From Escherichia phage vB_EcoM-LTH01: a stretch of DNA of 64,000 nucleotides. Below, piece by piece: positions 42,045 through 59,903 of the stretch (within the stretch, counting starts at the first letter, position 1; the number at the start of each line of letters is the position of its first letter). The translations under genes were made by a program, and so were the position numbers. The stretch lies in sequence record PP430345; one strand, given 5' to 3'. The notes beneath the pieces were generated by a model, which did not search any database, had not been told where the DNA came from, and was given only the letters and a program-made list of their open reading frames with translations.

Positions 42045-43244
42045 ATGTTAGAAATGTTGAACTTAGGTGCTGTGGCCTCTCTACCGCCGATTGATGGTGA
42101 AATTTCACCTGAATTTATCCAAGCGCAGCAATCGATAGTTATGTATCTTCACAGGCCAACTGGCAATCTTTACGGGTATGGTAATGCACCTGTATACCGA
42201 TTCGGAGACGGTATCCCAACAGAAGTGCCGAGCTTTAAACTTATCTATTCAAACTGTAAATATTTCTGGTTGGGTCAGGCTAGTACACTTGTTGCAACAA
42301 ACGATGATAAATTCTATTATGCTGGGGTCAGAAACGCATTTCCACCACTGGGGACAGGTGGTGGTAACGTTGCTTACTTTACTGAAGTTACAGTACATTT
42401 TAACAATATTGGTGTGACACCTGATGATATAAAAACTCTGGCGCTCGGTAGCGGATCTTGTAGGCTTCTGACAAAAGATGGTCGTGTTTTCTGCTGTGGT
42501 CTTAACTCTAATGGTGAGTGTGGGAACGGTACAAGAAATATGATTGCAAACTTTGTCCAGATCACCAATATGGGACCTATATCTCAATTGGCTACAAGGG
42601 CTTTCGGTACTCATTTCTTAACTGAAGATGGCAGGGAATTCTTTGCAGGGTACGATGCTTACGGGGAAAGTGGCCTAGGTGCTCTTAACAGCCACTTACA
42701 AACTCCAACATTGGTTACTTCGGGTGTTAAAAACATAATTGTTGCTACGGTATGTACTTGGAGAATAATGCAAAATGGAGACGTGTATTGGAGCGGTTTG
42801 AATACTCAAGGTTCTGCGGGAACAGGTTCATTTAACAACGCAGGTACGGTCCTAAGACCTATAAAAAACGATGCCTTGAGTGGAAACTTACCGGAGGGTG
42901 ATTTATTATATCCATCAGGCATCCAAACAGGTGATGCAACGGGTGCTCCGATCATTTGTTTCGGGAGAAACACTATCAAAAACGGTGGTGAAAACGGATC
43001 AGGTCAAGTGGGTGATGGTGTAAGTTATACATCGGTATATAACTATGTGGACATGTACAAACCTGCAACCTTCGGAGATAAAAAGGTTATTGGGGTGGCT
43101 AAAGATTATGTACGATCATTTATCTTAACTGAAGATTATCAATTGTTTGCCGCAGGTGGTAGAACAGCAAGTGGATGGACACTCCCTGATGGAGGGACCA
43201 GTGTTACACCCATGCGCCTCATGGCTAGTATGCCTTGGTACTAA
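42045..43244 (+). CDS. RCC1-like Gly-rich repeat protein, paralog 1 of 4
   Basis: starts MLEMLNLG; repeated G-x-N-x-x-G-x-x-G-x-G units such as CCGLNSNGECGNGT and WSGLNTQGSAGTGS. Confidence 0.7.
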   Translation: MLEMLNLGAVASLPPIDGEISPEFIQAQQSIVMYLHRPTGNLYGYGNAPVYRFGDGIPTEVPSFKLIYSNCKYFWLGQASTLVATNDDKFYYAGVRNAFPPLGTGGGNVAYFTEVTVHFNNIGVTPDDIKTLALGSGSCRLLTKDGRVFCCGLNSNGECGNGTRNMIANFVQITNMGPISQLATRAFGTHFLTEDGREFFAGYDAYGESGLGALNSHLQTPTLVTSGVKNIIVATVCTWRIMQNGDVYWSGLNTQGSAGTGSFNNAGTVLRPIKNDALSGNLPEGDLLYPSGIQTGDATGAPIICFGRNTIKNGGENGSGQVGDGVSYTSVYNYVDMYKPATFGDKKVIGVAKDYVRSFILTEDYQLFAAGGRTASGWTLPDGGTSVTPMRLMASMPWY

Positions 43245-43257
43245 TAAGGAGAATAGA

Positions 43258-44391
43258 ATGTTAGAGATGTTAAATTTATCTGGCGCGGCAGGGAAGGTCC
43301 CATTTAAGTTGAAAAAGTTTGATATTACAGCAAGCGAAAGTATTCACTTGCTTAGTGAAGCTGGCAATCTGTACTCAATATCACCTACAAATGTAAACTT
43401 ATCGGGAACGGGTGTTACCACAACGCAGTGGACGTTAGTCTCTTCGGGTGTAGATGACTTCTGGGCTGGGCAAGCTTCGCTCTTGTTCAAAACAAAAGGG
43501 GGATCGTGGTTTATTACAGGGTATAACTTCTTCGTACCTAGAGTAGAGAATACGCCCGTTGACGTAACGGCTAAGGTAATGGCAATCAATAAGCCGATAA
43601 GAAAAATAGAAATGGGTGCTAATGCGATCGCTTTCCTTTATACAGATAATACTCTGGCAGTTGCGGGATCAGGCCCCCATTTAGGCTTAGGTTCCAATAC
43701 TTCAGTCCCGAATTTAACTTATGTTGAACCACCAAATACTTCGTTGGGTATCAAAGATGTTGCGATATTGGATACTTCAGTTACTACCTGGATTATAAGC
43801 GGGGGTGATGTATACGGATGTGGAAACGGGGCTTACTCTAAGTTTTCTTCTTCCAACGGGACAGGCCAAAGGACCTCTTTTGTTAGGATACCAAACCCAA
43901 TAAACTCAGCACCACTTGCATTAAAGACTGGATATGAGTGCGTGTATATTTCAGGCTCACGCACAGACGGGGATGAATTGATACTCGGCTTAGGTAGCAA
44001 CGCATATGGGTCATTAGGTGCAGCATCTACTGTTGCAACTGTAACTGACATATCTGTAGTCACAAGCAGTGTTTATTCACCCGCTTACGGGTTTTACCCT
44101 CTCGCCCAAGGTCTTGTGAGGAGAATAAATAACAATATCGGTATTACGGGGAGGACTGCGGGGACAGGCTGGGGATTGGGAACTCAGACGTATTACGGTA
44201 TTACTAGAATAACCACTACAGCAAGTCCGTTATGGGGTCAAATATTTCAAAGGGGTGAGTATACAAACACTTACGTTCTGGCAGAAGATGGTATTTTGTA
44301 TGGGTCGGGTGGGGCTTCAACAGGTAAATTACCTGGTTACACAACAGATCAGTCAACCTATGTGCCACTGGACCTTACCGGACTTGAATAA
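43258..44391 (+). CDS. RCC1-like Gly-rich repeat protein, paralog 2 of 4
   Basis: AAGGAGAATAGA SD then MLEMLNLSG; track start 43147 overlaps paralog 1. Confidence 0.7.
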   Translation: MLEMLNLSGAAGKVPFKLKKFDITASESIHLLSEAGNLYSISPTNVNLSGTGVTTTQWTLVSSGVDDFWAGQASLLFKTKGGSWFITGYNFFVPRVENTPVDVTAKVMAINKPIRKIEMGANAIAFLYTDNTLAVAGSGPHLGLGSNTSVPNLTYVEPPNTSLGIKDVAILDTSVTTWIISGGDVYGCGNGAYSKFSSSNGTGQRTSFVRIPNPINSAPLALKTGYECVYISGSRTDGDELILGLGSNAYGSLGAASTVATVTDISVVTSSVYSPAYGFYPLAQGLVRRINNNIGITGRTAGTGWGLGTQTYYGITRITTTASPLWGQIFQRGEYTNTYVLAEDGILYGSGGASTGKLPGYTTDQSTYVPLDLTGLE

Positions 44392-44400
44392 GGAAAAATT

Positions 44401-45540
44401 ATGTTAGAGATGATGAACTTAGGTTCTGTCGAATTGCCAGAAGTGGAAGGTAACGTTAAGAAATTCGCCGCCGGAGGTACGGGGATTGTTGTACTTATGA
44501 AATCCGGCAACGCCTACGGTATCGGAGATCAATACTTCAGCGGTACAGGGGGGAATGTTACAACATGGAGGCTTCTGGCAAGAAACGTTGCAGATATATG
44601 GGCTGCAACTGGCTCTGTGCTTATGAGGACAACCGCAGATAGATGGTTGTTTATGGGGTTTAACCAATATTTTAATACTGGTTTTGGAACTACGATAACC
44701 ACCCCCAGAGATATAACTACAGATATGCCTATACCCGAAGGATTTGAGATCAAGCAGTTGGTACTCGGGTATCGTAACTTGGCTGTTGTCTTTACCAATG
44801 GGCGGTATGCAATGTGCGGGACTAATAACGCAGGAGGTCTGGGGACAGGGGACACTTTTGCAGTAAGAACCTTAACCTTAAGAACTGACTTCACAAACGT
44901 TGAAAAAATAGATCTTGATTGGGCAACCTACGACACATCTTATCTTCTTACCCAAGCTGGTGAAGTTTATGTATCAGGTGTTTCAAATAATGGACAAAAC
45001 GGGACAACTTCAAACACTACAACTTGGTTTAGGCAAAGCCCAATTAGTGGTGGTACGGTAGTTGACATAATCGCGACAACGCTTGGGTTTTTTAGGGTTG
45101 TACTTTTAAATGGTAATTACTACGTCTACGCACAAGGGCGAAGTTCGTCAGGGAGTCTTGGGGTAAATAACTCAGGTAACATAAACGTTCTTTCACCCTC
45201 ATTGGTATTTTCTAATGTACCTTCAAGACCTCCTTTGTACATTGGTCACCTTAGCGCCCGTATTCTCCACCCCGAAGAAAGGGTATACTATACAGGGGCG
45301 GCTACGGGTAGTTTACAAGGAGCAGGTGCACAATTTCAGTCGTCGTATTCAGTATTTACACGGCTTGCAGAGACTGTACCGTATGGTGGAGAATATTCAT
45401 CCCTAAAAGGTGGCTATGTTGCACACTACTATGTAGATAAAGGAAACCTATATGGTGTCGGTAATAGCAGTGCAGGATTGCTCCCAGGTTACATAGGTAC
45501 ACAACTCTTCGAATTTACACCGTTGGAATTGCCGGAGTAA
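44401..45540 (+). CDS. RCC1-like Gly-rich repeat protein, paralog 3 of 4
   Basis: MLEMMNLG start; CGTNNAGGLGTGDT; C-terminal LLPGY...LELPE. Confidence 0.7.
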   Translation: MLEMMNLGSVELPEVEGNVKKFAAGGTGIVVLMKSGNAYGIGDQYFSGTGGNVTTWRLLARNVADIWAATGSVLMRTTADRWLFMGFNQYFNTGFGTTITTPRDITTDMPIPEGFEIKQLVLGYRNLAVVFTNGRYAMCGTNNAGGLGTGDTFAVRTLTLRTDFTNVEKIDLDWATYDTSYLLTQAGEVYVSGVSNNGQNGTTSNTTTWFRQSPISGGTVVDIIATTLGFFRVVLLNGNYYVYAQGRSSSGSLGVNNSGNINVLSPSLVFSNVPSRPPLYIGHLSARILHPEERVYYTGAATGSLQGAGAQFQSSYSVFTRLAETVPYGGEYSSLKGGYVAHYYVDKGNLYGVGNSSAGLLPGYIGTQLFEFTPLELPE

Positions 45541-45562
45541 AAAACTTCAAAAGGGGAATTAA

Positions 45563-46714
45563 ATGTTAGAAATGATGAACTTAGGCACTGTTAAACTTCC
45601 TGCGGGAGGAGGCAGGGTCAAGAAGTTTGCAGCGGGGCAACAAGGCATCGTTGTACTTATGGAGTCTGGGAAACTCTATGGTCGCGGAAGTCAGTATTTT
45701 AGTGGTACAGGGTCTACTGTAAACACTTGGAAACTGCTAGGAACAGATATCGCAGACGTATGGACGGGTCCCGTATCAACTCTTGCAAGGACAACAGACG
45801 ACAGATGGTTGTTTATGGGATTGAACCAATATTTTAACACTGGTTTTGGGACAACATGGTCCGCGCTGACGGATGTTACAGTGGATATGCCTATCCCTGT
45901 TGGCCTTACGGTTAAGCAGGTAGTGATGGGATACATAAACGTTGCAGTAGTCTTTGCAAATGGACAATATGCCATGTGTGGGACAAATGTCTCCGGTGGA
46001 TTGGGTGTTGGTAACACATCACCTGTGAGAACCTTAACATTAAGGACCGATTTTACGAACGTGGAGAAGATAGACCTCGATTGGGGGACATATGATACCT
46101 CCTATCTTCTTACCCAAGCTGGTGATGTTTATGTGGCCGGACAATCTTCTTATGGTCAAAACGGAACACAGTCTAGCTCCACAACTTGGTTCAGGCAAAG
46201 TTCAGTTAGCGGCGGGACAGTGGTAGATATAGTTGCAACAACCTTAGGGTTCTTCAGGATCGTTCTTTCATCAGGGAGTTACCGAATATATGCGCAAGGG
46301 AGGGACATAAACAATAGTCTTGGAACTAACACCACAAGCAACACACCTCGACTGGCCCCTGTATTAGTTCTTTCGGGAATAGCAAGTGCAGTAAGACCAA
46401 GGGTATATATCAGTCACTATGCTGCCCGAGTTATAGATAGCGATGGAGTAGTATACTTTACAGGACAAGGGACGGGAGATCTACAGGGTGTTGGGACCAC
46501 ACCTCAACCAACGTATCGTGTTTTTTCACAGCTTGACCCAATAGTTCCGTCCGTAGGTGATTATTTTTCCACAAGATCTCAGTACCTGACTAACTATTAT
46601 TTGGAAGATGGTGTTCTGTATGGTGTTGGTCAGGGTGCTCAAGCAACACAGTTACTACCTGGTTATGGAACGACACAGGTTCTGACTTTCTCTGTTCTGG
46701 AATTACCGGAATAA
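45563..46714 (+). CDS. RCC1-like Gly-rich repeat protein, paralog 4 of 4
   Basis: MLEMMNLG start; CGTNVSGGLGVGNT; C-terminal LLPGY...LELPE; followed by terminator. Confidence 0.7.
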   Translation: MLEMMNLGTVKLPAGGGRVKKFAAGQQGIVVLMESGKLYGRGSQYFSGTGSTVNTWKLLGTDIADVWTGPVSTLARTTDDRWLFMGLNQYFNTGFGTTWSALTDVTVDMPIPVGLTVKQVVMGYINVAVVFANGQYAMCGTNVSGGLGVGNTSPVRTLTLRTDFTNVEKIDLDWGTYDTSYLLTQAGDVYVAGQSSYGQNGTQSSSTTWFRQSSVSGGTVVDIVATTLGFFRIVLSSGSYRIYAQGRDINNSLGTNTTSNTPRLAPVLVLSGIASAVRPRVYISHYAARVIDSDGVVYFTGQGTGDLQGVGTTPQPTYRVFSQLDPIVPSVGDYFSTRSQYLTNYYLEDGVLYGVGQGAQATQLLPGYGTTQVLTFSVLELPE

Positions 46715-49429: not shown

Positions 49430-50400
49430 CTGCTCATCCCAAAATGTTGTACACCTCTCCAAAATGTTGTGCCCACCAAACTATATAGTCCTTCCAAACT
49501 GTTGTACTCCAGCTACAATAATGCCCAAATATCGTACAACGATTCCCACAAATATCGATTCATCCCAAAATTAGGTAGTTTGCCTAAAGAGTAACCACTA
49601 CTTGGCCTACTGAGGCGCATCTTTTGCCACAGAGTTACCTCCCTTCCCTATACATCCATCCCTCATAGTTTAGAATTTCCAGTATATGTCTACTCTGAGT
49701 GGACCTCCATCATGAATTTTAAACGACAACTTTTTAGTTTTTATACCCTCCCGCCAAAATTTTGAGTCACCTCTTATGGGGTATGCCGCCTGTGAATATC
49801 CCACAAAATATCTCACAGGTCATAAAATATACCTCCCCGCCAAATTTTATGATGGATACTCCACGGGGGTGGGTCCATTATTTATCCTGCCCAAATATAT
49901 CTAAAGGGGGTAGCCTAAAGAGGCTCGCCAGTAGTGTCCCTTGACCTTGTTCCTCGTCAGCAAGAAAGAAGAGGATGTTTGCATCTTTTTTGTTGAGTGC
50001 GTTGGCACTGTTGCCAGGCACGGCGACCGTGGGGGAGGGGGAGGGGGTCGGATGTTTTCAAAATATCCAGGAAGTCAAGCATTATTTCTATTTATTTTCA
50101 ATCCACAATACATCTTTGATTCGACTTGTCAAGAAAAATGTTGTGCTCTTCCAACAATAAAGTTAAAGATTTCTATTGACTTCTGAATCTGATTTAGAAT
50201 ACTGATTTCAATCTGCATTTAACATAATACAACTTATACGCACTACAAGCGACTTGCAAGCGCCCTTCTTCCAGTCCAACAAGTGAGGCGACCTCAAGCC
50301 CCGCCAGGTCTGGCCCCTTCCAACTTGTGAGAAGAATAATCCCAACTTGTTACTATCCAACTGTGAATTATTCCAACTGTACAGAAGCGACTCCATCAGG
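49430..50400. repeat. iteron-like short direct repeats (CCAA-N-TGT family)
   Basis: CCAAAATGTTGT x2, CCAAACTGTTGT, CCAACAAGTG, CCAACTTGTG, CCAACTTGTT, CCAACTGTG, CCAACTGTAC in an ORF-free region. Confidence 0.5.
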
Positions 50401-50534
50401 GCCATCAATAGCCTGAGCGCCCCGCCATACTCTGGCAATAAAAGCAAGAAAAAATTTATTTTGGGAGAGAAGAGAGAAGAGAGTTTTACCTAGCAATATT
50501 CTATTGTCTGTTCATTCTGTGGGCAAGTAACAGC

Positions 50535-50600
50535 CTTTTACGGCCTCTTTGTGTACTGTGCATCCTCTTTGTGTACCCTACAGCCTCTTTGTGTGGTCAC
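50535..50600. repeat. triple direct repeat CCTCTTTGTGT
   Basis: three copies at ~22-bp spacing. Confidence 0.55.
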
Positions 50601-50714
50601 ACTAACGGCCTTCCTATTGACTAGCTATTCACTTTATATGAATAACAAAGCATTAAATAATTCAATATTATCTTCGATAATGTATTGACAAAAGATAAAA
50701 GATTACTACAAGTA

Positions 50715-50828
50715 GACACTATAAAACGAGGAAACGAAGAGAACAGATAGCAACAATCTGTTTCGTTGATATCGGTTATCACCGATGACCGCATAGCGGT
50801 AGGAGGGGTATACTCGTTTTATAGTGTC
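50715..50828. repeat. nested inverted repeat (long hairpin/cruciform)
   Basis: GACACTATAAAACGAG ... CTCGTTTTATAGTGTC 16-bp perfect inverted repeat enclosing ACAGAT/ATCTGT and ATCGGT/ACCGAT palindromes. Confidence 0.55.
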
Positions 50829-51084
50829 GCTCCCTACGGTCGCGCCACCTCCATACTCTGGCAATGGTATCTCTTTAAAACTGCTTTCTTTGTGGGCAAG
50901 ATAGTTCTTTCTTTGTGTGTTTTGTTGTGGTAAGCTATCAGATTAGTTTTGATTTTTGGGAGAGAGATTCCAAAGGGTGATTGGATTGATGGGTAAAGTA
51001 AGTTAGAGGGGTTAGATAGGATAAGATGATCCAAATAGGGAAGAGATTAATAGAGTTGGGAGAGTCACGCCGATGGATATGATA

Positions 51085-51105
51085 AGGGCCGCTATTGCGG
51101 CCCCT
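51085..51105 (-). terminator. intrinsic terminator closing the minus-strand block
   Basis: minus strand GGGCCGCAATAGCGGCCC followed by TTATCAT. Confidence 0.5.
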
Positions 51106-51119
51106 GATTATGTTACCTC

Positions 51120-51539
51120 TTAAAGTGCTTCATAGATTTCATAGTAGCGATTTGCCAGATCATTACGAAAGCGGAATTTTTCATCACGTTTGATAATCAG
51201 GTCTTTAAAGCCAAAATCTTTCAGTGCTTCATTAACTTTACTGCGGCTTACTTTCATGTTGTCCTGTGCATCACCGATAAATTTGTTGCTGTGCTGCATT
51301 GCTTTAATTTCTTCTTCCAGAACCAGGGCAACTACACGAACCGGATCAAGGCGATAATCGTTAACATCCATACGGCATTGTAAACGGCTTTTAACGTCTG
51401 CCACTGGATAAACTGCAACCTCTTCCCCATCAACATTGACGATAACCAGTTTACCATCAATTTCAAAACCTTTGGCGGCGCTACCGTGACAAAAAGCGTT
51501 ATCGAAAGAGTAAGCCGGATTAGTTGATTTGATGTTCAT
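51120..51539 (-). CDS. hypothetical protein (possible KilA-N/Bro-N-like N-terminal domain)
   Basis: 139-aa ORF with promoter upstream; FEIDGKLVIVNVDGEEVAVYPVADV loosely Bro-N-like. Confidence 0.55.
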   Translation of the reverse strand: MNIKSTNPAYSFDNAFCHGSAAKGFEIDGKLVIVNVDGEEVAVYPVADVKSRLQCRMDVNDYRLDPVRVVALVLEEEIKAMQHSNKFIGDAQDNMKVSRSKVNEALKDFGFKDLIIKRDEKFRFRNDLANRYYEIYEAL

Positions 51540-51671
51540 GTCGTTGTCCTTTGTTTTGTTGTTTGCTGCTAGAGATATAACTATACTGCAAAATTGACTT
51601 TCTTGTCAATAGAGGGAATTGTAAATTAATGGAATATTTACAAAGGGGGCATATAACCCCCGTTTTCGATA

Positions 51672-51941
51672 TTACTTAGTATACCCTTTAAACCACTCCT
51701 GCCAGGCCTGGTTATGTTCTGCCTCATCACGACGAATCTGTTTTTGCTCCGCAAGTCGGATCTCATCTTCGAGGTAGCCCAGGATATCGGCCTTTTTGAC
51801 TTTCTGCAACTTCCAATCATCAGCTTTGTGGCTGAATACCTTATAAGCCTTCTCACATACTTCTTTTTTGCTCCCTTTCTGAACTTCAAGGATACGGTAA
51901 GCCATATGCTGAACTACTTTAAGCTGGTCGATGCGATTCAT
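51672..51941 (-). CDS. hypothetical protein
   Basis: 89-aa ORF with balanced composition; preferred over overlapping 51638..51889. Confidence 0.5.
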   Translation of the reverse strand: MNRIDQLKVVQHMAYRILEVQKGSKKEVCEKAYKVFSHKADDWKLQKVKKADILGYLEDEIRLAEQKQIRRDEAEHNQAWQEWFKGYTK

Positions 51942-51996
51942 GATGTTAATCCTGTTAGGTCAGTTAGTGGGCCTTTCGGCCCGTTTGATTATTCTA

Positions 51997-52272
51997 TTAT
52001 GAGCGTCTGGCAAATTCAAGAGTTTTTTCTTCGAAATCTTCTTGAGCTTGCCACAATACTGATTGCATCATGTGATTAGCATCAGTGAAACCGTTGCTTT
52101 TAGCAAACTTATCCGCGCCGCCTTCTTCTGCGTATTCTGCATTCATAGCTGCAACATTATGATACTCGATGTTATTGAGGTAAGGACTTGCTACACCGTC
52201 AACATCTGTAGCCACTACCATATCCCAAAACTCAGTGATTTCTTTGTCTAATTTGGCGTTAAGTTGTAACAT
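51997..52272 (-). CDS. hypothetical acidic protein
   Basis: 91-aa ORF downstream of TTGACA promoter. Confidence 0.55.
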   Translation of the reverse strand: MLQLNAKLDKEITEFWDMVVATDVDGVASPYLNNIEYHNVAAMNAEYAEEGGADKFAKSNGFTDANHMMQSVLWQAQEDFEEKTLEFARRS

Positions 52273-52792
52273 TTTGTACCCTTTTTGATGTTTTGAATGT
52301 TTGCCCTACGAGAGATATAATAGTATACAACTTACTTTTGTGTCAACAATCTTTTTAACTTCTTTTCTTGTTTCTTTCTTTCTTTCCTGGTGCTCTTTTG
52401 TTTCTCACAGTTTAACACTTCGATCGCAATCTCAGTAGAAGGTGTCTAGGAGCGCCCCTTTTCGGGACTTACTCAACGTGCCCTTTCTCAACACTTGCCA
52501 GCCTTTTTCATCTGGACGATTCGAAAACTTAGAAACTTTCTGATACTTTATCGGATTCGACTTCTCAGAACTTACATCATAGAGTAACTACTTTGCATCA
52601 CTGCTTCGCTGCCCTACGTGATAAATAATAATATAACGGTAGTCCGGTGTCAATAGGTAGAATTGTAAAGATTTGATAGATTTTATTTTATTTTTGGTGA
52701 GTATTGATAGTTATTTACTATCGCCATATAGAGGGGTCGTCCAGTGATTACCTTCCCCTGTCCCCAGTTGCCGCCCGTTTGATAAGAATAGC

Positions 52793-52823
52793 AAAAAAGG
52801 GCCGAACAAGTCAAGCCCTTTTG
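52793..52823 (-). terminator. intrinsic terminator
   Basis: minus strand AAGGGC...GGCCCTT hairpin + T6. Confidence 0.55.
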
Positions 52824-52829
52824 TTGAGG

Positions 52830-53090
52830 TTAATAAACAGACCAGGGTATTTTTAACATTCCGTTAATCTCTATCGTTTGCTCAAGTATGGCCCTGTTGA
52901 TAAATGATGTTATTGCTTTAATGTCTACTTGTTCGAACGTATCAGAGTAGCACCAACTATAAGCGCCAGAATCATCCTTTGAAGGATACACTTGTACAAG
53001 GAGATCGCCACCTGGTTGATCAATCAGTTCAACACATAACTTTAATGCTTTTGCCTCTTCTACCGCATTAATTAACATTGCAATGCTCAT
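52830..53090 (-). CDS. hypothetical protein
   Basis: 86-aa ORF; terminator downstream. Confidence 0.5.
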   Translation of the reverse strand: MSIAMLINAVEEAKALKLCVELIDQPGGDLLVQVYPSKDDSGAYSWCYSDTFEQVDIKAITSFINRAILEQTIEINGMLKIPWSVY

Positions 53091-53293
53091 ATTTCGCCCC
53101 CTATGAAGTCTGATCGATTGCTTTCTGTCATGCGTTTATGTAAATCAGATAATTTTGAAATGGCTTCCAATGTATCGCTTTCTAACGATGAATCTAGATA
53201 GCTCTCATCGTTGATAACCTTCCGTCTATGGTGATAGCGTAATACAGATAAAGCCTTTTTAATGTCGGATGAGCTAATCATTGAAATACTCAT
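53087..53293 (-). CDS. hypothetical protein
   Basis: 68-aa ORF, overlapping stop/start with downstream gene. Confidence 0.5.
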   Translation of the reverse strand: MSISMISSSDIKKALSVLRYHHRRKVINDESYLDSSLESDTLEAISKLSDLHKRMTESNRSDFIGGEI

Positions 53294-53341
53294 TATTGTT
53301 TCTCTTTGGTTGACTTGGGGCGTTGCCGCCCCTTATTAATA

Positions 53342-53587
53342 TTAGAATTGGCGAGTAAGGCGGTCGGTGTTTTCCTGCATTACAACCTTACCTGTTGCTA
53401 CCATTTCTTTGATTTTTTCATCATTAATAATGTTGTTGTTCTCTTTAATCCACTTCCAACGATTACCCATCAAGGTATCCCCTTTTAATGCATAATACCA
53501 AACGTTGTTGGGCATCTTGATCCAGGCTGTACCGCGTGAATTTTTAGGATCGTGATAGATATTGCCAATTTTAGTTGTCTGGTACAT
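53342..53587 (-). CDS. hypothetical protein
   Basis: 81-aa ORF with promoter, palindrome and SD AAAAGG. Confidence 0.5.
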   Translation of the reverse strand: MYQTTKIGNIYHDPKNSRGTAWIKMPNNVWYYALKGDTLMGNRWKWIKENNNIINDEKIKEMVATGKVVMQENTDRLTRQF

Positions 53588-53686
53588 GATTTTTTACCTT
53601 TTCCAGTGGGCTGCACCATTGCCGCCCTACGTGATAAATATTAGCATATTGACGATCCGTGTCAATAGTTTTCCATTAATATTTCA

Positions 53687-54088
53687 TTACAGACCTAGGA
53701 TAGCCCGTACTTCGTTACGTTCTTTGGCCTCAGTCATGATCATACTTAAAATAGCTGGATTAATATAACCTTTTTCCATAGCCTCGCGAACTGGAACATC
53801 ATAAGCCCCAAAACCAGTGCGAACGATACGCACATCATTAAGATTAGTATTATAGATACCGCCCAAATACACGGCCTTGAATACTGCATCAACGCTATAC
53901 TCGATGTTACCATCATTTACGTTTTCAATCTCGATGTTACGAGATACCGCCCAACGTTTACAGCTTCCAATCAGGTAACATTGCTCTTTTGTCAGATTAC
54001 CATTGGATACTGCATATTTGAGGGCTTCAGGGCCGAAAGTTTTAGCAATGTTGGCAACGTCAGCGTAAGAGGTGATTGTAAAGTTCAT
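53687..54088 (-). CDS. hypothetical protein
   Basis: 133-aa ORF; promoter and GCGGCA palindrome upstream; SD GGAG. Confidence 0.55.
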   Translation of the reverse strand: MNFTITSYADVANIAKTFGPEALKYAVSNGNLTKEQCYLIGSCKRWAVSRNIEIENVNDGNIEYSVDAVFKAVYLGGIYNTNLNDVRIVRTGFGAYDVPVREAMEKGYINPAILSMIMTEAKERNEVRAILGL

Positions 54089-54172
54089 GATGATAACTCC
54101 AGTCAGTGAGCGGCAACATTGCCGCCCCTACAAGATGAATATTAACAGATTAAGGATTTATGTCAATACTTT
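54089..54172 (-). promoter_or_regulatory. early promoter + GC palindrome unit
   Basis: minus strand AAAAAGTATTGACA - 16 nt - TAATAT, then GCGGCAATGTTGCCGC palindrome, SD GGAG. Confidence 0.55.
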
Positions 54173-54559
54173 TTATTCGATATTGATTAAATTGTTGTTG
54201 TCAATGTAGGCTGACACGTTCGGCATAAATTTAGCGGCATTTGTTAAACGGTTAGCCGTGTTAGTGGTGTATGTTTCAGGACGATCCCAAAAGCCTACGC
54301 CGTGACCGTTGCGTGTAAGATGTAAATCATTCCCTATCTGGATCGCTGTTGCACCGTCAGCCATTGCCTCAGAGATAGCGGCGATATTGGCATTAATGAA
54401 GGCTGTTACATCCTGGGCGATCCGGTCGTTTGCGTCCTGGGAGAAGTCATAAGGATCAAGGTTATCGATATGCTCCCCGTGCTGATCCGTTGCTGATTCA
54501 GCGAAAATAAAGGCTTCTTTGTAACCGTCGATAATTGTATTGATGATTTCTTGTTTCAT
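54173..54559 (-). CDS. hypothetical protein
   Basis: start moved to MKQEI; track N-terminus (54586) runs through the palindrome. Confidence 0.5.
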   Translation of the reverse strand: MKQEIINTIIDGYKEAFIFAESATDQHGEHIDNLDPYDFSQDANDRIAQDVTAFINANIAAISEAMADGATAIQIGNDLHLTRNGHGVGFWDRPETYTTNTANRLTNAAKFMPNVSAYIDNNNLINIE

Positions 54560-54603
54560 TTCATTTATTCCTTTATATGGCGGCATTGTTGCCGCCCTGT
54601 TGA

Positions 54604-54777
54604 TTAGTAGTCTTCTTCTTCGCTGTTGTAATACTTGATCCCGTTCTCATCTGTAACGGTGATGTTTTCCTGGCCTAACAAGGAAAGCTCATGAGCGTAG
54701 CGAATTGCATCGCTTAAATTGTCCATCCAATGGATGTTAATGCCTTTGCGAGAGATGTGGAAAATAGTCGGGATCAT
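54604..54777 (-). CDS. small protein (57 aa)
   Basis: SD AAGAGGAAAC upstream; below track cutoff. Confidence 0.35.
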   Translation of the reverse strand: MIPTIFHISRKGINIHWMDNLSDAIRYAHELSLLGQENITVTDENGIKYYNSEEEDY

Positions 54778-54790
54778 TTGTTGTTTCCTC

Positions 54791-54895
54791 TTAACCGATA
54801 CCGTGGGAAGATAGGATCATATTAGCCATAGTTGCAATCACTCCAACCGATAAAGTTAAACCGATAATTGCTACCGTGAAAACTTTCTCTGACAT
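54791..54895 (-). CDS. tiny membrane peptide (34 aa)
   Basis: hydrophobic MSEKVFTVAIIGLTLSVGVIATMANMIL; SD AAAGGG; follows promoter/palindrome unit. Confidence 0.3.
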   Translation of the reverse strand: MSEKVFTVAIIGLTLSVGVIATMANMILSSHGIG

Positions 54896-54970
54896 GATTT
54901 TACCCTTTTTCAGTGAGCGGCGCTATTGCCGCCCTACGTGGTACACTTTACCAGATTATTAATTGCCGTC
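54896..54970 (-). promoter_or_regulatory. early promoter + GC palindrome unit
   Basis: AAAAAAGTAGTTGACG ... TAAAGT ... GGGCGGCAATAGCGCCGCTC. Confidence 0.55.
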
Positions 54971-55098
54971 AACTACTTTTTTCGAATTATTTTGTGCCCT
55001 TTTAAAAGCCCGAGGGTAAGCCAGGGCGTAAATAGCGTCAAGTAAGGTGATTGCATACTTTCGCCGTTTTAGGCTGTTACAGGACCATTTATCGCCTC

Positions 55099-55377
55099 TT
55101 AACGGTTATAAATATTGTGGATAGTGATAAAGGTTCTACGACCATACGCCGCCAAATCGGGATTGATCCAGGCATTATCTAACATCGTTTCAAGGATGAT
55201 AGAATCATCATGCAAAGCATCATAGAAATCAGCATGAACGATCGTTTCAATATCGTCTGATGTTAGCTCTGTATTCAGCTTACAGGTTGCTTGCAAATCA
55301 GCTTCACGCTTCCAATCTCCAAGATTAGTAGTCAGAATGTTGGTGATCTCTTCGGTGGATAATTTAGTAATAGTCAT
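55099..55377 (-). CDS. hypothetical protein
   Basis: start moved to MTITKL after SD AGAGAGGA; track N-terminus crosses palindrome. Confidence 0.5.
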   Translation of the reverse strand: MTITKLSTEEITNILTTNLGDWKREADLQATCKLNTELTSDDIETIVHADFYDALHDDSIILETMLDNAWINPDLAAYGRRTFITIHNIYNR

Positions 55378-55435
55378 GATAGATATCCTCTCTTTTCTCT
55401 TTAATAAGGCGGGAACTATTCCCGCCGCTTTATGA

Positions 55436-55675
55436 TTATTTGATAATGAAAGCGTAGCCGCTGCCGTCCGGTGTTTCACCGCTTGCAACGATATTCCAAT
55501 CAATATCTGTTGTCATCTTCAATTTTGTAATTAACACTTCTGCCGCCAGTTTATGGGCTTCGTTGATCTCGGCTACCGGATAGGCTATAGTGATATCTGT
55601 CAACCAACATTTTGCTTTGATGCGAGCGCCACGGGTATTAGTAGGAGGAAGAAATTTAGTGATAATAGTTTGCAT
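55436..55675 (-). CDS. hypothetical protein
   Basis: 79-aa ORF; TTTACA-N16-TACAAT promoter upstream. Confidence 0.5.
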   Translation of the reverse strand: MQTIITKFLPPTNTRGARIKAKCWLTDITIAYPVAEINEAHKLAAEVLITKLKMTTDIDWNIVASGETPDGSGYAFIIK

Positions 55676-55751
55676 GGTCTTTACCTTTCTTTGGTTGGCT
55701 TTATTGCCTGATTTGTATTGTACTTACTTTGTTGTTTTTGTAAAGCTATTT

Positions 55752-55970
55752 TTAAATCTTTGTGAGGATTATACACTCAGTGGGGATGTTCCCCACACTT
55801 ACGATCATTGACCTGATTTGTGTAACCTTCATATTCAGCCGACAACAAATGGCGGTGAATAATCTCATCTGTTTTTCTACTTCTCCATCTTTGCAGATCC
55901 ATACGGTGGATTCACCTGGCGCAAGATTCTTAAGGATCTCGGTCTTACCTGTAATGTTGACAATATTCAT
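55752..55970 (-). CDS. hypothetical protein
   Basis: SD GAGGAATAA upstream of ATG. Confidence 0.4.
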   Translation of the reverse strand: MNIVNITGKTEILKNLAPGESTVWICKDGEVEKQMRLFTAICCRLNMKVTQIRSMIVSVGNIPTECIILTKI

Positions 55971-56195
55971 TTTATTATTCCTCAGTGTAGCGAGTGTCGT
56001 AAAGTACAGCGGCGGCAGTAGCAGAACATACAGCGACCAGGAGAGAAACTAAGAAAATTGCCATCATGATAATCACCTTTGAGTTTTTTCGTTTTGGGCT
56101 ATCTCGCCCCGTTGAAAGTACTATACTACTACCCAATGTTTGTTGCAACTACTTTTTAAAACTTTTTATAACTTTCTTTTAAGTGCATGAATTAA

Positions 56196-56348
56196 TTAAA
56201 ATTCATAAAGGATAACATTAAATTCATCAATGATTTGGGCCTTATGATATCCTCCCTTTGCCAGCTTGTAAGCCGTGCACAAATCAAAAAAGGTCCGGCT
56301 GATCGGTGACGATGATTCTGTTTCCCAGGTCAATAACTTATACACCTT
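56196..56348 (-). CDS. hypothetical small protein (GTG start)
   Basis: track start 56411 overlaps upstream gene by 53 nt; GTG after GAGG. Confidence 0.3.
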   Translation of the reverse strand, partial: KVYKLLTWETESSSPISRTFFDLCTAYKLAKGGYHKAQIIDEFNVILYEF

Positions 56349-56358
56349 ACACCTCAAT

Positions 56359-56565
56359 TTAGTTTGAATATTTATAATCTTCTGACCAGTAAATAACTTT
56401 AATCCCTGCATATCCTGTAAAAACAGACAATGCAGCGAAAGCTATGCTAATACCTATTGCCCCAGGAAACAAAGATCCTATGGCGACGATTAAAGATAGC
56501 CCTGCAATAGCCAGGAGGGTAGTCGCAATAAAGCTAACAAAGTTATATACAATTTTCTTTTTCAT
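56359..56565 (-). CDS. small membrane protein
   Basis: two TM segments; promoter TTGACG-N17-TATAAT upstream. Confidence 0.5.
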   Translation of the reverse strand: MKKKIVYNFVSFIATTLLAIAGLSLIVAIGSLFPGAIGISIAFAALSVFTGYAGIKVIYWSEDYKYSN

Positions 56566-56591
56566 TTCTATAAATCCTATTTCGTTTGCCT

Positions 56592-56637
56592 ATGCCGTCC
56601 ATTATAGGTACGGCACAAGCCAACGTCAACAAGTTTT
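56592..56637 (-). promoter_or_regulatory. promoter with palindrome spanning the -10
   Basis: TTGACG - 17 nt - TATAAT with TGCCGT...ACGGCA inverted repeat around the -10. Confidence 0.45.
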
Positions 56638-56802
56638 TTAAATTAGTTTAGTACCTGGCTTGTTAAGGTGGCGCTTTGCCATTTTAACCGCTGTTACTTT
56701 ACTATGACCAGCTTCACGATAAAAGTTAACCAGACGTTTCAAGTTTTCTTTCTTCTCAGCCTTATTGGGCCAATTTACATAAGATAAATTTTGCGGATTC
56801 AT
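56638..56802 (-). CDS. hypothetical basic protein
   Basis: start at MNPQN with ATGA overlap to upstream stop. Confidence 0.45.
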   Translation of the reverse strand: MNPQNLSYVNWPNKAEKKENLKRLVNFYREAGHSKVTAVKMAKRHLNKPGTKLI

Positions 56803-57101
56803 TTGCTTTTTTCCTCGTAGAAACAAGCTGCAACAAAACCAATAATTACAGTGTTCACTTCCGATTTTGGGATCGGATGGCTACTACCTGATGCGATAAC
56901 TTCACCGCCGTTGGTCAAGGTATAGATTAAAACAGACGTAGCAGGTTCTTTACCTTCCTTGACTGTTAGCACGGCTTCGCTATCTTCAAAGTCACCATTA
57001 TCTTTTTTGCGTTTAAAGACCATTGACTTTTTGCCCATAGCTACAAAGATACTTTCGTCAAGTGAATCTAAAAAGAAATACTCATTTGCTTTGGTAAACA
57101 T
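56799..57101 (-). CDS. hypothetical protein
   Basis: 100-aa ORF; TTGACG promoter upstream. Confidence 0.5.
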   Translation of the reverse strand: MFTKANEYFFLDSLDESIFVAMGKKSMVFKRKKDNGDFEDSEAVLTVKEGKEPATSVLIYTLTNGGEVIASGSSHPIPKSEVNTVIIGFVAACFYEEKSK

Positions 57102-57161
57102 GATTATGCCTCATTTGTCGATTTGTTACAGTTTAAATTAAAATGACCTTCACGTCAACTA

Positions 57162-57341
57162 TTAATTTGCTACTTTTTTCTGATAGCCTTCACGAAAGTA
57201 AGCGCGGATTTGGCCCAAAGATAAACGCATGTCGTTTTTGAGGGAGCTAATAGAGTAAGCCTTGTTTTTTATGATTTCGTGGTGTCCGGTTCCGTTACCA
57301 ATGATAATGTTTACAGTAGCTACCATCATACTTGCTTTCAT
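57162..57341 (-). CDS. small protein (59 aa)
   Basis: follows promoter + GGCGGGGA palindrome unit; below track cutoff. Confidence 0.4.
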   Translation of the reverse strand: MKASMMVATVNIIIGNGTGHHEIIKNKAYSISSLKNDMRLSLGQIRAYFREGYQKKVAN

Positions 57342-57402
57342 TTTGTTGGCCTTTCGTTTTGTGGCGGGGAAACACTCCCCGCCTGATGTGATATATTATA
57401 CT

Positions 57403-57654
57403 TTACGCTTTTAACTTTGCAAGTGATTTATTAAACATTTCAGCGGTAATATTTTTACCCGTTGGTTGTACTTTATCCAGGATCTTTTGGTGTGCACTAC
57501 GTCCGAAAGAATAAGATCCATAAGCCGTTAGCCAATAGTCGCCATTTTGGTTTACATGCACCGCACAATAAGGTACTCCACGGGATTCATCACTAATGAA
57601 GTGAGATACTGTACCCGTTACATTAGCCGTCGTAGTTTTGATTTGTTCTAACAT
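57403..57654 (-). CDS. hypothetical protein
   Basis: 83-aa ORF; promoter/palindrome/SD CCTAGGAG unit. Confidence 0.5.
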   Translation of the reverse strand: MLEQIKTTTANVTGTVSHFISDESRGVPYCAVHVNQNGDYWLTAYGSYSFGRSAHQKILDKVQPTGKNITAEMFNKSLAKLKA

Positions 57655-57741
57655 TTCTCTTACTCCTAGGACATAGGCGGGAAGTGTTCCCGCCTTCTAT
57701 GTAATATAGTTTACTCGTTTTCTCTATGCTGTCAATGATAA
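57655..57741 (-). promoter_or_regulatory. early promoter + GC palindrome unit
   Basis: TTGACA ... GGCGGGAACACTTCCCGCC ... SD. Confidence 0.5.
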
Positions 57742-58122
57742 TTACATATCTTTTTTGCGTTTAACATCAACAGCGTTCGAATAAACAGGGATGTTATTGT
57801 CACGGCAAAAGCGGGAAAGGTAACTATACTCTGAAAACTCTTTTCCTTCCAGGTTGATAACCTTGCTAAATTCTTCCAGTGCCACGGTATCGAAATGATC
57901 ACCATAGCCATATTTGAACGGCACGCTAACTACCTCAACCAATTTACCAGCGATCTCCACGTCTACACTTAAAGAGAAATAAGTATTACCGTATGATTGT
58001 TGGAACCAACGGCGGGCCAGGACGTGCACCGCTTCCACGTTTGACAGCTTGATTTTAGAATCTGCATTCAGAGTAACCATATCAGCATAATCGCAAACGT
58101 TAGTATTTTTAGCCATTTTCAT
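57742..58122 (-). CDS. hypothetical protein
   Basis: 126-aa ORF; promoter TTGACT-N17-TAAATT and palindrome upstream. Confidence 0.55.
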   Translation of the reverse strand: MKMAKNTNVCDYADMVTLNADSKIKLSNVEAVHVLARRWFQQSYGNTYFSLSVDVEIAGKLVEVVSVPFKYGYGDHFDTVALEEFSKVINLEGKEFSEYSYLSRFCRDNNIPVYSNAVDVKRKKDM

Positions 58123-58205
58123 AATCTCTTTTTGTTTAGCGGGGCCATTCCCCGCCTGATGTGATTAATTTACTTGTTTTGTTTCTTTCAGTCAACTACT
58201 TTTTC
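58123..58205 (-). promoter_or_regulatory. early promoter + GC palindrome unit
   Basis: AAAAAGTAGTTGACT - 17 nt - TAAATT, GGCGGGGAATGGCCCCGC. Confidence 0.55.
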
Positions 58206-58208
58206 AAA

Positions 58209-58502
58209 TTATTTTTGCAATGCACGTTGTAAGTTTTCAGCGTCCAGATTATCAATCATGTAGCTCATAACTTCTTTTACTTCTTGCAAGTCTTCCTCTG
58301 TTAATTCCTCACCTTCCGGCATAGGTTCAACCTCAGGCGATGCGATACAGGCCGGATTAATCCAACGGCGATCTTGCTCATACGCCGTAGTAACAATCTC
58401 ACACGCTAAAGGATCATCGAATGACTCAACTACATAATCATCACATTGGCGAACGGCGGCAGCACCATAAAAACAAAATCCTGCAAAAACTTCGTATAAC
58501 AT
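58209..58502 (-). CDS. hypothetical acidic protein
   Basis: start moved to MLYEVF after SD AAAGGTGA. Confidence 0.5.
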   Translation of the reverse strand: MLYEVFAGFCFYGAAAVRQCDDYVVESFDDPLACEIVTTAYEQDRRWINPACIASPEVEPMPEGEELTEEDLQEVKEVMSYMIDNLDAENLQRALQK

Positions 58503-58587
58503 AATAATCACCTTTGGGTTATCTTCATCTCGTCTTGATGAAACTAATATACATCCTCTCAAAAATGGATGCAAGAAGTTTTTTAAA

Positions 58588-58815
58588 TTATTTTCTAATT
58601 ATCTTTACTGCCTGGATAGTCTCGCAAGATGACGGATCAACAATCAACAATTGGCTTACGCTGACCTTTATTTCTTCCCTAGAGGCCGTAGCAGTGATTG
58701 AACGTGTAACGCTGGTATAATCCTTACCTTGCGGGATTAGATACGTTATAGACGTTCCCAGGGCGTTGTTTTTGAGGAAGCGGATCACTTCTGTAAGTGA
58801 AAGAATATTGATCAT
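58588..58815 (-). CDS. hypothetical protein
   Basis: start moved to MINIL (SD GGAG); track N-terminus lies in terminator hairpin. Confidence 0.45.
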   Translation of the reverse strand: MINILSLTEVIRFLKNNALGTSITYLIPQGKDYTSVTRSITATASREEIKVSVSQLLIVDPSSCETIQAVKIIRK

Positions 58816-58834
58816 GTCTGTTCTCCATAAAGAA

Positions 58835-58862
58835 AGGCCCACATTATAGCGGGCCTTGATTG
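58835..58862 (-). terminator. intrinsic terminator
   Basis: minus strand AGGCCCGCTATAATGTGGGCCT + TTCTTT. Confidence 0.6.
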
Positions 58863-59003
58863 TTAAAGATCGATTGTATTAGTGATCCATTCGTGCCGCT
58901 TGTTCTCTCGCTTATCTTTTACTTTCTTCTTCTTACATTCTTGATAAGTATTGAAATCAAGTTTTTTAGTTTTGATGATTTTTTGTCGGTTTGTATTAGT
59001 CAT
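58863..59003 (-). CDS. small basic protein (46 aa)
   Basis: K/R-rich ORF followed by intrinsic terminator. Confidence 0.35.
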   Translation of the reverse strand: MTNTNRQKIIKTKKLDFNTYQECKKKKVKDKRENKRHEWITNTIDL

Positions 59004-59006
59004 ATG

Positions 59007-59318
59007 TTAAGCCCTGCGTTTAGTTTGTTGTTCGTGGTAATATTGACGCTCGTCAATAATGTCGTGAATCTCTTCTTCTGTACTGCGGTACACTTCAAAA
59101 ATTATCTCAGCCCCAAGTGACTGGCGATACTGCATAGCGCCAACCGCATCAATCTCTAACATCGGACCATAGTCACGGGATGATCCAACCTTACCACGGT
59201 AACGATACTCAAAGTAACAAAACATTTTATCACGCCTTTTATTGAAGTAACTCATTGTAATTGATGTGGCGATGTAACCTATGCCGAGTAAACCTATGAT
59301 GCTAACAATATCATTCAT
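59007..59318 (-). CDS. membrane-anchored protein
   Basis: start at MNDIVSIIGLLGIGYIA (TM) after SD AAGGA. Confidence 0.45.
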   Translation of the reverse strand: MNDIVSIIGLLGIGYIATSITMSYFNKRRDKMFCYFEYRYRGKVGSSRDYGPMLEIDAVGAMQYRQSLGAEIIFEVYRSTEEEIHDIIDERQYYHEQQTKRRA

Positions 59319-59382
59319 CTTTGTGTCCTTGTTTCTTTTAATCTTGCCCCTGAATACTAATAGGGGCAATGTTAAAAGTCAA

Positions 59383-59592
59383 TCAAAAACTTTCTTTAAT
59401 GATTTGGTCGAGGCGCTCACTTGTTTTCAGTTTTCCCATTTGTTCAAGTTTAACGCTGACCTGATTGAGAATATTTTCGGCTTGCTCAGGGTAAAGATCA
59501 GTAGCTTTCCAAAATGCCTGACGTGCGCCAGATTCTACGGCAACGGCTAAAACTTCCTCTCGAACGTCATTGATTGTTTTTTCATTGATCAT
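59383..59592 (-). CDS. hypothetical protein
   Basis: 69-aa ORF, SD AAAGGTGA. Confidence 0.5.
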   Translation of the reverse strand: MINEKTINDVREEVLAVAVESGARQAFWKATDLYPEQAENILNQVSVKLEQMGKLKTSERLDQIIKESF

Positions 59593-59622
59593 TTTATCAC
59601 CTTTCTATTTTTGCGTTGTATA

Positions 59623-59805
59623 TTAACGATAGTCATCATAAGCAATATTGATAAGTTCGAAATATTTTTCGAAAGCTTCATCAATGCAATCAAGTTCTGC
59701 GATCATTCTGCCATATTTCACAACATAAACCAGACTAGAAGAATCATAGGACAAAGTAACATCGTTAACGCCTTCGATCTTTGTAGTTGCAATCAGTTCT
59801 GTCAT
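59623..59805 (-). CDS. hypothetical protein
   Basis: 60-aa ORF after promoter and GGGGGAA palindrome. Confidence 0.5.
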   Translation of the reverse strand: MTELIATTKIEGVNDVTLSYDSSSLVYVVKYGRMIAELDCIDEAFEKYFELINIAYDDYR

Positions 59806-59900
59806 TTTTCAATCTCTCTTTTTGTTTATGGGGGAAGATGTTTCCCCCTATTCGTTAATTATCTTACTTCTTTATACTCTTTCCGTCAACTACTTTTTTA
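59806..59900 (-). promoter_or_regulatory. early promoter + GC palindrome unit
   Basis: AAAAAAGTAGTTGACG - 17 nt - TAAGAT, GGGGGAAACATCTTCCCCC. Confidence 0.55.
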
Positions 59901-59903
59901 ATC

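Follow-up and report, generated by a model that had tools for sequence, protein, structure and literature searches.

Phage phi29 encodes, beside a physical end of its genome, the pRNA, which is ~120–170 nt long and has a multi-branch fold closed by a helix between its 5' and 3' ends; its structure is kept while its sequence diverges. Here we describe an element with similar traits, built around an inverted repeat in Escherichia phage vB_EcoM-LTH01 (PP430345), of which a stretch of 64,000 nt (hereafter the window) was analysed. This element also lies near a genome end, is multi-branched, is closed by a helix (helix P1) and conserves structure over sequence. It differs from pRNA in its setting: phi29-like phages have protein-primed genomes without a classical terminase small subunit, whereas rV5-like phages, in which the element is found, package concatemers with terminal repeats. 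There is no Rfam pRNA match, and phage FV3 is without the element, which therefore cannot be an essential part of a packaging motor.

The C4 antisense RNA of phages P1 and P7 is small, its ends pair and its 3' tail, of the CCA type, is encoded; RNase P processes it, and its specificity lies in variable loops. The ends of our element pair as well, its 3' boundary is GCCA and its loops are variable, but it has no Rfam C4 match and no complementary target in the window, and it is found in a lytic phage beside the terminal repeat. In T7, the neighbourhood of the direct terminal repeat (DTR) reportedly contains arrays of short repeats and a hairpin-forming inverted repeat; these features (the SRL and SRR arrays, the phiOL and phiOR promoters and the inverted repeat close to the concatemer junction) presumably function as DNA. 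The likeness is in the layout (a non-coding zone just inside a short terminal repeat, short direct-repeat arrays, a gene-less promoter and an inverted repeat), whereas the inner helices of our element show covariation of the RNA type, on one strand, and there is no sequence similarity to T7.

The injection-stop-signal region of T5 is likewise a non-coding block close to a terminal repeat and contains many direct and inverted repeats and palindromes (PMC13250531). It differs in that the T5 block is at the inner end of a 10-kb repeat carrying pre-early genes, whereas here the stretch from the genome end to the element is free of genes. To our knowledge, no two-step DNA transfer has been described for rV5-like phages. 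Folded single-stranded DNA sites (integron attC, CTXphi attP and plasmid single-strand origins) are imperfect inverted repeats of 60–150 nt with conserved structure and one functional strand, as here, but they depend on a single-stranded stage and on a recombinase or primer system of their own. We saw no sign of either at the element, nor a reason why its + strand should become single-stranded.

The element is an unannotated RNA-type motif from a well-sampled phage group, probably a structured non-coding RNA (ncRNA) of phages outside all described families. P1 is probably the closing helix of an RNA structure selected on the + strand (~50715–50847), and the element family is conserved in rV5-like myoviruses (Vequintavirinae and Stephanstirmvirinae).

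The inverted repeat and its fold

The window phage belongs to the Vequintavirinae and is Septuagintavirus/Jab-like. For this region its only close relatives in GenBank are A73, W70, A5-4 and A7_1 (genus Septuagintavirus) and UPEC06. The features of the element are as follows (MFE, minimum free energy).

50685–50690 (+): TTGACA, a -35-like box, invariant in six of six phages; left edge of the conserved block
50707–50712 (+): TACAAG, weak -10 candidate after a 16-nt spacer (putative promoter role)
50715–50730 (+): 5' arm of P1, GACACTATAAAACGAG; starts with GACA, which is kept across lineages
50733–50767 (+): hairpin 1 of the MFE fold, AACGAA-ACAGAT ... ATCTGT-TTCGTT; tip (50750–50769) hypervariable
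50770–50787 (+): hairpin 2 of the MFE fold, UAUCGGU-UAUC-ACCGAUG
50788–50800 (+): hairpin 3 of the MFE fold, ACCGC-ATA-GCGGT
50801–50812 (+): purine-rich unpaired segment AGGAGGGGUAUA, invariant in the genus
50813–50828 (+): 3' arm of P1, CTCGTTTTATAGTGTC; identical in relatives
50829–50847 (+): small hairpin P4, GCTCCCTACGGTCGC (50829–50843), then GCCA (50844–50847); right edge of cross-lineage conservation

The inverted repeat is perfect over 16 bp, as an earlier note on this sequence had stated: the 3' arm is the exact complement of the 5' arm, and the spacer is 82 nt. No other perfect inverted repeat in the window with a gap of 20–200 nt is as long; in 40 composition-preserving block shuffles the longest reached 15 nt, and most shuffles did not exceed 13 nt. 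The window contains no further copies of the arms or of the element. The + strand folds into a four-way junction of -47.2 kcal/mol, against -26.3 ± 3.5 for dinucleotide shuffles (z = -6.0; none of 200 as stable). The opposite strand folds nearly as stably in this phage.

Sequence is essentially invariant from TTGACA to ~50894 (50695–50894 is ~100% identical in the six phages, vs 40–90% for the flanks), and both P1 arms are identical in all five GenBank relatives. Changes inside the block are restricted to the tip of hairpin 1 and the loop of hairpin 3. In relatives, the 20 nt at 50750–50769 are swapped for unrelated sequences of 11 or 9 nt, each forming its own small hairpin; the ACAGAT/ATCTGT hairpin is therefore a tip specific to the window. 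Both internal palindromes named in the earlier note are present, namely ACAGAT/ATCTGT (50743–50748 and 50756–50761, lengthened by AACGAA/TTCGTT) and ATCGGTTATCACCGAT (50771–50786), but the first is not conserved. Hairpin 2 does not vary in the genus, save for a different first base in UPEC06 and A5-4. Hairpin 3, which like P4 had been overlooked, has substitutions in the loop only (ATA to AGG in A5-4).

Compensatory changes and the strand under selection

The covariation was measured in the Stephanstirmvirinae counterpart, using eight aligned sequences, RNAalifold and explicit counting of pairs. The fold has 53 pairs in five helices, with 99.8% of the cells paired and 14 pairs showing compensatory double changes (three of the covarying pairs are in P4). 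None of 500 shuffles reached the observed values, and slid partners paired in only 23–52% of cells. For P1, all 170 pairs over ten different arm sequences are Watson–Crick. Compensatory changes beyond shuffled and slid controls, the generic mark of a structured ncRNA, are found in the Stephanstirmvirinae counterpart and, for P1, in all lineages; pairing is thus kept by compensatory changes when the fold is followed into relatives.

All five Stephanstirmvirinae helices covary and include G·U pairs, with 40 G·U cells in total (including four invariant wobble pairs) and no A·C cells. Because these G·U cells would be mismatches on the complementary strand, selection appears to act on the + strand only. 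Consistently with this, the + strand is at least as stable as the - strand by MFE in nine of nine elements of one set and nine of 10 of another, and the ten-element comparison has 25 G·U pairs on the + strand vs eight on the - strand. The earlier note had left the choice between a structured small RNA and a DNA cruciform; compensatory changes in relatives and + strand wobble make the putative small RNA the better-supported alternative, while G·U confined to the + strand in the inner helices speaks against a two-stranded cruciform. A cruciform or palindromic protein site also fits poorly with the spacer (82 nt, and 47–211 nt elsewhere) and with the symmetry, which only P1 has.

Counterparts in other lineages

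The element has positional counterparts in Vequintavirus (rV5), Phapecoctavirus, Justusliebigvirus (phi92), Klebsiella phages and metagenomic contigs:

Vequintavirus (rV5, bov10K2, ECP2303 and others; 120 records): perfect 18-bp arms, GACATAATATAAAAGCAG, 116–149 nt between them
Phapecoctavirus, Justusliebigvirus (phi92) and Klebsiella phages (133 records): 15–16-bp arms, GCTAATAATA plus a variable inner end, ~97–118 nt between them
Metagenomic contigs L013, L031, L073 and L080: arms of 13, 17, 18 and 26 bp, elements of 73–245 nt

The metagenomic lineages were retrieved by a pattern of the conserved 3' (P4) motif; patterns of the exact arms and of the inner hairpins in IMG/VR, and of the exact arms in metagenomes, gave no matches. 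Depending on the lineage, 47–211 nt lie between the P1 arms. Cross-lineage conservation starts at GACA and stops after TGTC, a small hairpin (GCTCCCTNCGGTCGC; in Vequintavirus a clean 5-bp hairpin, GCGAC-UCC-GUCGC) and GCCA. The L013, L031, L073 and L080 types share the motif GCTCCCTNCGGTCGCGCCA unchanged, and the hairpin 2 motif ATCACCGATG is common to the window and the tip of hairpin B in Phapecoctavirus. At the location of hairpin 3, L031 and L073 have a hairpin of other sequence. Most lineages, with L080 as an apparent exception, have a run of G directly before the 3' arm. When a covariance model was built from the Stephanstirmvirinae alignment, it matched the Vequintavirus element end to end with 26.2 bits (E = 1e-4), and that of L013 with 17.6 bits; between 49900 and 51200 of the window its best match, on the + strand, coincided with the element, though weakly.

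Loops carry insertions of 33 nt in rV5, 20 nt in phi92 and 47–130 nt in the metagenomic phages L113 and L036; hairpin tips that take 20–130 nt behave like the peripheral loops of structured RNAs. A GC-rich terminator-like hairpin module (CGCTGGCTATGCCAGGTG...CACCCC..GGGTG) is found upstream of P1 in rV5 (L011, ~1090–1139), bov10K2 and Murica. It is absent from other Vequintaviruses and occurs inside hairpin loops of the element in L113 and L036; this module behaves like a small insertion module.

Within 50828–50849 of the window, and in its counterparts, the five bases that follow P4, GCCAN, resemble the start of the 5' arm, GACAN, with an N that covaries by lineage (C, U or A); in Stephanstirmvirinae, GCUAAU stands both after P4 and at the start of the 5' arm. 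Such a likeness would permit an alternative helix, in which the outer 3' arm, P4 and the tail would compete with outer P1.

Known families and identities ruled out

Rfam 15 (including pRNA, C4, 6S, Y RNA-like and ribozyme families) has no match at the gathering threshold in the whole window. At E up to 10 within 50100–51200, only a chance miRNA fragment outside the element was obtained, and no match overlaps the element in counterparts from four other lineages. ARAGORN found no tRNA or tmRNA gene in the window; the GCCA following P4 resembles a tRNA 3' end and no more than that.

Other identities were tried and rejected. For a retron (msr-msd), there is no open reading frame (ORF) of >155 amino acids (a.a.) within ~3 kb on either side, and the flanking ORFs scanned have no significant Pfam match. 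An element of the miniature inverted-repeat transposable type would not have direct repeats 23 and 275 nt from the arms that are lineage-specific, nor a single copy in the window. Host origin or mimicry was dismissed (no match in 5,426 E. coli genomes), and so was coding, as the 52-a.a. - strand ORF over the element is broken by the 11-nt length difference in UPEC06 and A5-4. The resemblance between the left terminus of the DTR and the reverse complement of P4 (GCGACCGTGGGG vs GCGACCGTAGGG, 11/12) has p ~0.04 in the window only and is absent in bov10K2 and P17.

Genome setting

The features around the element are:

50017–50490 (no strand assigned): inferred DTR, 474 bp; the two ends of the UPEC06 record, identical over 462 bp, align here
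50425–50439 (+): left copy of a direct repeat, inside the DTR, lineage-specific
50544–50594 (+): three iteron-like repeats, CCTCTTTGTGT, at 20-bp spacing between the DTR and the element; copy number varies in relatives
50851–50865 (+): right copy of the direct repeat, CCATACTCTGGCAAT, lineage-specific
51086–51104 (-): apparent GC-rich terminator-like hairpin, GGGCCGC-TATT-GCGGCCC, 3' of the 139-a.a. gene
51120–51539 (-): gene for a 139-a.a. protein (phrog_12277), adjoining the element, highly conserved

The motifs at the junctions of the DTR (the slash marks the edge), TGCCA/GGC at the outer edge and TTGTC/T at the inner edge (TTACC/T in the window), recur in the bov10K2, FV3 and UPEC06 records; in bov10K2 they are at position 1 and at position 459/460, the latter matching the 459-bp terminal repeat of phage Gotham (PMC7471380). 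Phage Jab, another relative described in a 2026 paper, has a genome of 142.1 kb (40% GC) that ends in terminal repeats of 475 bp and encodes ribonucleotide reductases of both class I and class III (PMC13538427), and the window fits this description: NrdA and NrdD were found, and the inferred repeat is of nearly the same length. A G-rich tract, GTGGGGGAGGGGGAGGGGGTC, with putative G-quadruplex potential is at 50029–50049, 12 nt inside the outer edge of the DTR, and is kept in relatives; a similar tract, GGGGGAGGGG, is present within the L031 and L073 elements.

The inverted repeat begins 225 nt inside the inner edge of the DTR and ~700 nt from the physical genome end, with its 5' side toward the DTR. 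Orientation is constant, and the element is 188–283 nt inside the repeat, in three phages whose terminal repeats were determined independently: P17 (328 bp), phi92 (343 bp, from the annotation) and BME3 (342 bp, from PhageTerm). All ORFs of at least 150 a.a. are on the + strand until ~47.6 kb, and small genes on the - strand begin at 51120; the cumulative GC skew has its maximum at the element locus, where the two gene blocks converge. Between them is an ORF-free block of 1.1 kb (~50020–51105), which all six phages share, in contrast to the mosaic genes on either side. Each edge of this block has a terminator-like hairpin: on the left, immediately before the DTR, AGGATG-TTTG-CATCTT with TTTTGTT after it (49972–49993, +), and on the right the hairpin at 51086–51104, whose stem is conserved in relatives and whose loop varies (it is inverted in some). 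The suggestion in the earlier note of an origin or pac site agrees with the nearness of the inner DTR edge and with the repeat-rich non-coding block, but an essential role of this kind is weakened by the convergence of genes at the genome ends, by the absence of the element from FV3 and by the variable length of the interior.

The 139-a.a. gene is 84–99% identical in 142 phage records, several of which start 1.1–1.6 kb ahead of it; it is beside the element in three metagenomic contigs as well. The protein ranges over Vequintavirus, Phapecoctavirus, Septuagintavirus and metagenomic phages despite the mosaic early genes around it. It has no significant Pfam match, no relative in PDB and no function assigned to its PHROG, and its labels in GenBank records vary ('DNA translocase' or 'Rel homology domain'). 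Beyond it, near-consensus sigma-70 promoters (TTGACA-N16-18-TAnnnT) are unusually dense ahead of small ORFs on the - strand (51100–64000), which is typical of an early region read toward the genome end. On the other side, four tandem paralogues of 379–414 a.a. (42045–46714, +; PHROG 'regulator of chromosome condensation', RCC1-like) come just before the small-gene region that ends at the DTR.

Direct repeats and the deletion in FV3

Direct repeats of 15–21 nt are found around the unit in three lineages and are absent in L031, L073, L080 and Stephanstirmvirinae. In FV3 (L021, NC_019517, ~890–925; compare L009, 543–821), the entire 260-bp unit between 20-nt direct repeats is missing: a single repeat copy, GCCATGACATTCGTTTGCAT, runs straight into AGTTGCCTTATTG, which in other phages comes after the right copy. 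One base distinguishes the left from the right copy in YN3, SophiaRose and ECP2303, and FV3 has the left-type base, a pattern that fits deletion by recombination between the direct repeats. The element is thus apparently dispensable. Direct repeats as boundaries of the DTR or as a target-site duplication were rejected (their spacing, 426 or 259 nt, is unlike DTR lengths, and several lineages have none).

Other repeats nearby include four copies of (T)CCAACT(T)GT inside the DTR (50318–50380) and two of CTTTCTTTGTG to the right of the element (50884–50918), both with copy numbers that differ among relatives; Vequintavirus has arrays of ACTGTTTACA at the place equivalent to the short repeats of the window. 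In A73 (L001, ~4200–4330), the region of the left direct repeat (CCCCGCCATACTCTGGCAATAAAAGCAAG...) is duplicated, with ~50 nt between the copies, and the locus tags wrap from A73_264 to A73_1; this is either an assembly seam or a real duplication.

A proposed transcript and its possible role

The element would be transcribed rightward, either from a promoter at TTGACA (50685) or from one in or near the DTR with processing at the GACA and GCCA boundaries. The TTGACA box given in the earlier note is present and invariant in the genus, one base to the left of the position stated there (50686). Sequence upstream of it is wholly divergent in A5-4 and A7_1, and the -10 candidate is TACATA, TATAAG or TACAGA in relatives. 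Processing from a longer transcript seems as likely as initiation here, because the -10 is weak, the start would fall inside P1 and the genera share no promoter at a conserved position. A resemblance to promoters of the SP6/T7 type (GACACTATA) and a T4-late-like TATAAAA in the arm are absent from other lineages and were dismissed as coincidence; we know of no single-subunit RNA polymerase in this phage group.

The mature RNA would be ~130 nt long and stable, with a core (base of P1, P4 and GCCA) that may be recognised by a protein or a processing enzyme and with variable hairpins as peripheral decoration. It might be an accessory RNA acting in trans, such as a decoy or an RNA with a tRNA-like end, made from DNA beside the genome end, rather than an essential cis site. 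Given its absence from FV3 and the high plasticity of its interior, an accessory role for the element, in trans or through protein binding, is the likeliest of those we considered; we propose a protein-binding accessory RNA tentatively, as one possibility among several. More specific versions are rather unlikely, namely a tRNA-like-ended RNA (5'-G...P1...P4-GCCA-3', its ends made by processing at the edges of conservation) that would engage machinery for handling tRNAs or sensing nucleic acids, such as the CCA-adding enzyme of the phage, RNase P or a host defence targeting tRNAs, or an RNA cofactor in terminal-repeat processing or packaging of a terminase phage. The window encodes a tRNA nucleotidyltransferase (29977–31317, +; phrog_2244, E = 7e-132) and a second nucleotidyltransferase (33289–34416, +; phrog_388); the former, together with the GCCA boundary, is a lead, not evidence.

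Several observations weigh against an RNA. The strong covariation derives from the sister subfamily (Stephanstirmvirinae), while the genus of the window gives almost no informative variation, its helices never varying; the Stephanstirmvirinae covariance model, run on 49900–51200 of the window, had its best match at 50716–50848 (+) with a weak 8 bits. A promoter scanner did not list the TTGACA promoter, whose -10 is poor and whose start would be ~4–6 nt inside P1, and there is no sigma-70 promoter at a conserved position across genera. A terminator scanner gave no intrinsic terminator in 50700–50830 on either strand and none after the window element; the Vequintavirus counterpart has one borderline + strand terminator-like site (in bov10K2, formed by hairpin B and the 3' arm). 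We found no RNA-seq on these phages in the literature. As for an antisense target, no 12-mer or longer word of the RNA is repeated in the window save its own tail repeat (50851 vs 50425), and 10–11-mers are at chance level. Hairpins containing G·T in single-stranded DNA may be an alternative source of the wobble. P1 itself has no G·U in 170 bp, vs ~13% in the inner helices, which fits a constraint on both DNA strands or on identical protein-binding sites. Lastly, the iteron arrays between the DTR and the element resemble the arm of their own lineage, and arm-like copies are nearby in L013, KP13-26 and L073, which gives the locus the appearance of DNA iterons.

Alternative explanations

The wobble-free P1, the arm-like iterons and the fixed distance from the DTR (180–285 nt from its inner edge in five lineages) keep models at the DNA level alive. 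By analogy with the short-repeat arrays and inverted repeat beside the T7 terminal repeat, the arms and iterons could be binding sites, or a hairpin or cruciform substrate, for a terminase, resolvase or replication protein that acts in concatemer processing, repeat duplication or packaging; a T7 gp4-like primase-helicase has been reported for rV5 (PMC3606486). Selection on one strand in the inner helices (40 G·U vs no A·C) is difficult to reconcile with such a site, spacers of the observed lengths disfavour cruciform extrusion, hairpin loops tolerate insertions of 20–130 nt, FV3 is viable without the element and the window has no extra copies of the arms. We consider this explanation improbable on balance, yet worth keeping in view.

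Compared with an RNA closed by P1, three other readings are less likely. The locus is a convergent junction, where the authors of the rV5 genome expected a bidirectional terminator and found none (PMC3606486), so the element may be a compound terminator or insulator that shields the DTR from transcription, with a hairpin and a U-rich arm in each direction and both strands ending in ...CUCGUUUUAUAGUGUC. Sites of this kind have been called in two relatives, a - strand terminator over hairpin A in the Murica record and, by the scanner, a terminator-like site made of hairpin B and the 3' arm in bov10K2; a freely varying hairpin tip is also typical of terminators. But the scanner gives no site at 50700–50830, 16 nt separate hairpin 3 from the U-run on the + strand, and a dedicated hairpin (51086–51104) already follows the 139-a.a. 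gene. Moreover, termination needs neither the exact complementarity of arms of 13–26 bp nor the P4-GCCA core, and the wobble favours the + strand while strong early transcription runs on the - strand. A terminator is unlikely on these grounds.

A promoter-like box directly followed by structure, the AT-rich sequence (50600–50710) with iterons upstream, and the conserved G-run close to the C-rich P4 could also suggest a primer or origin transcript. A G-rich structured RNA would then form a persistent hybrid and prime rightward DNA synthesis close to the genome end, in analogy with ColE1 RNA II, T7 phiOL and T4 ori transcripts. This is very doubtful: the GC skew peak and the converging genes look like a terminus rather than an origin, the promoter is not conserved across genera, no DnaA boxes or initiator gene were identified nearby, and FV3 is without the element. 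It is highly improbable that the element is a small non-autonomous mobile or cassette-like insertion with FV3 as the empty site, as the 15–21-nt direct repeats flanking the unit in three lineages, the single repeat copy with nothing between in FV3 and the differing places of the GC-rich hairpin module might suggest, since the repeats are missing from L031, L073, L080 and Stephanstirmvirinae, the inverted arms are not at the ends of the unit, the genomic position is always the same, no copies are found elsewhere in the window or in E. coli genomes, and FV3 joins the left-type base to the sequence downstream of the right copy, as expected for a deletion.

Significance

The rV5-, phAPEC8- and phi92-like myoviruses are among the commonest therapeutic phage isolates for E. 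coli and Klebsiella, and their 'non-coding' block of 1–2.6 kb has been left blank since the 2013 rV5 paper, which labels the region "non-coding" (PMC3606486). This block holds a structured element, supported by covariation, at a fixed distance from the DTR: a new feature for annotation and a small target that can be deleted, for which FV3 provides a natural knockout junction. Should the RNA interact with enzymes of tRNA processing, with host defences or with the machinery that processes genome ends, a phage group so far described by its proteins alone would gain an RNA component; if the RNA is just a stable by-product or an insulator, the finding would still be a useful annotation.

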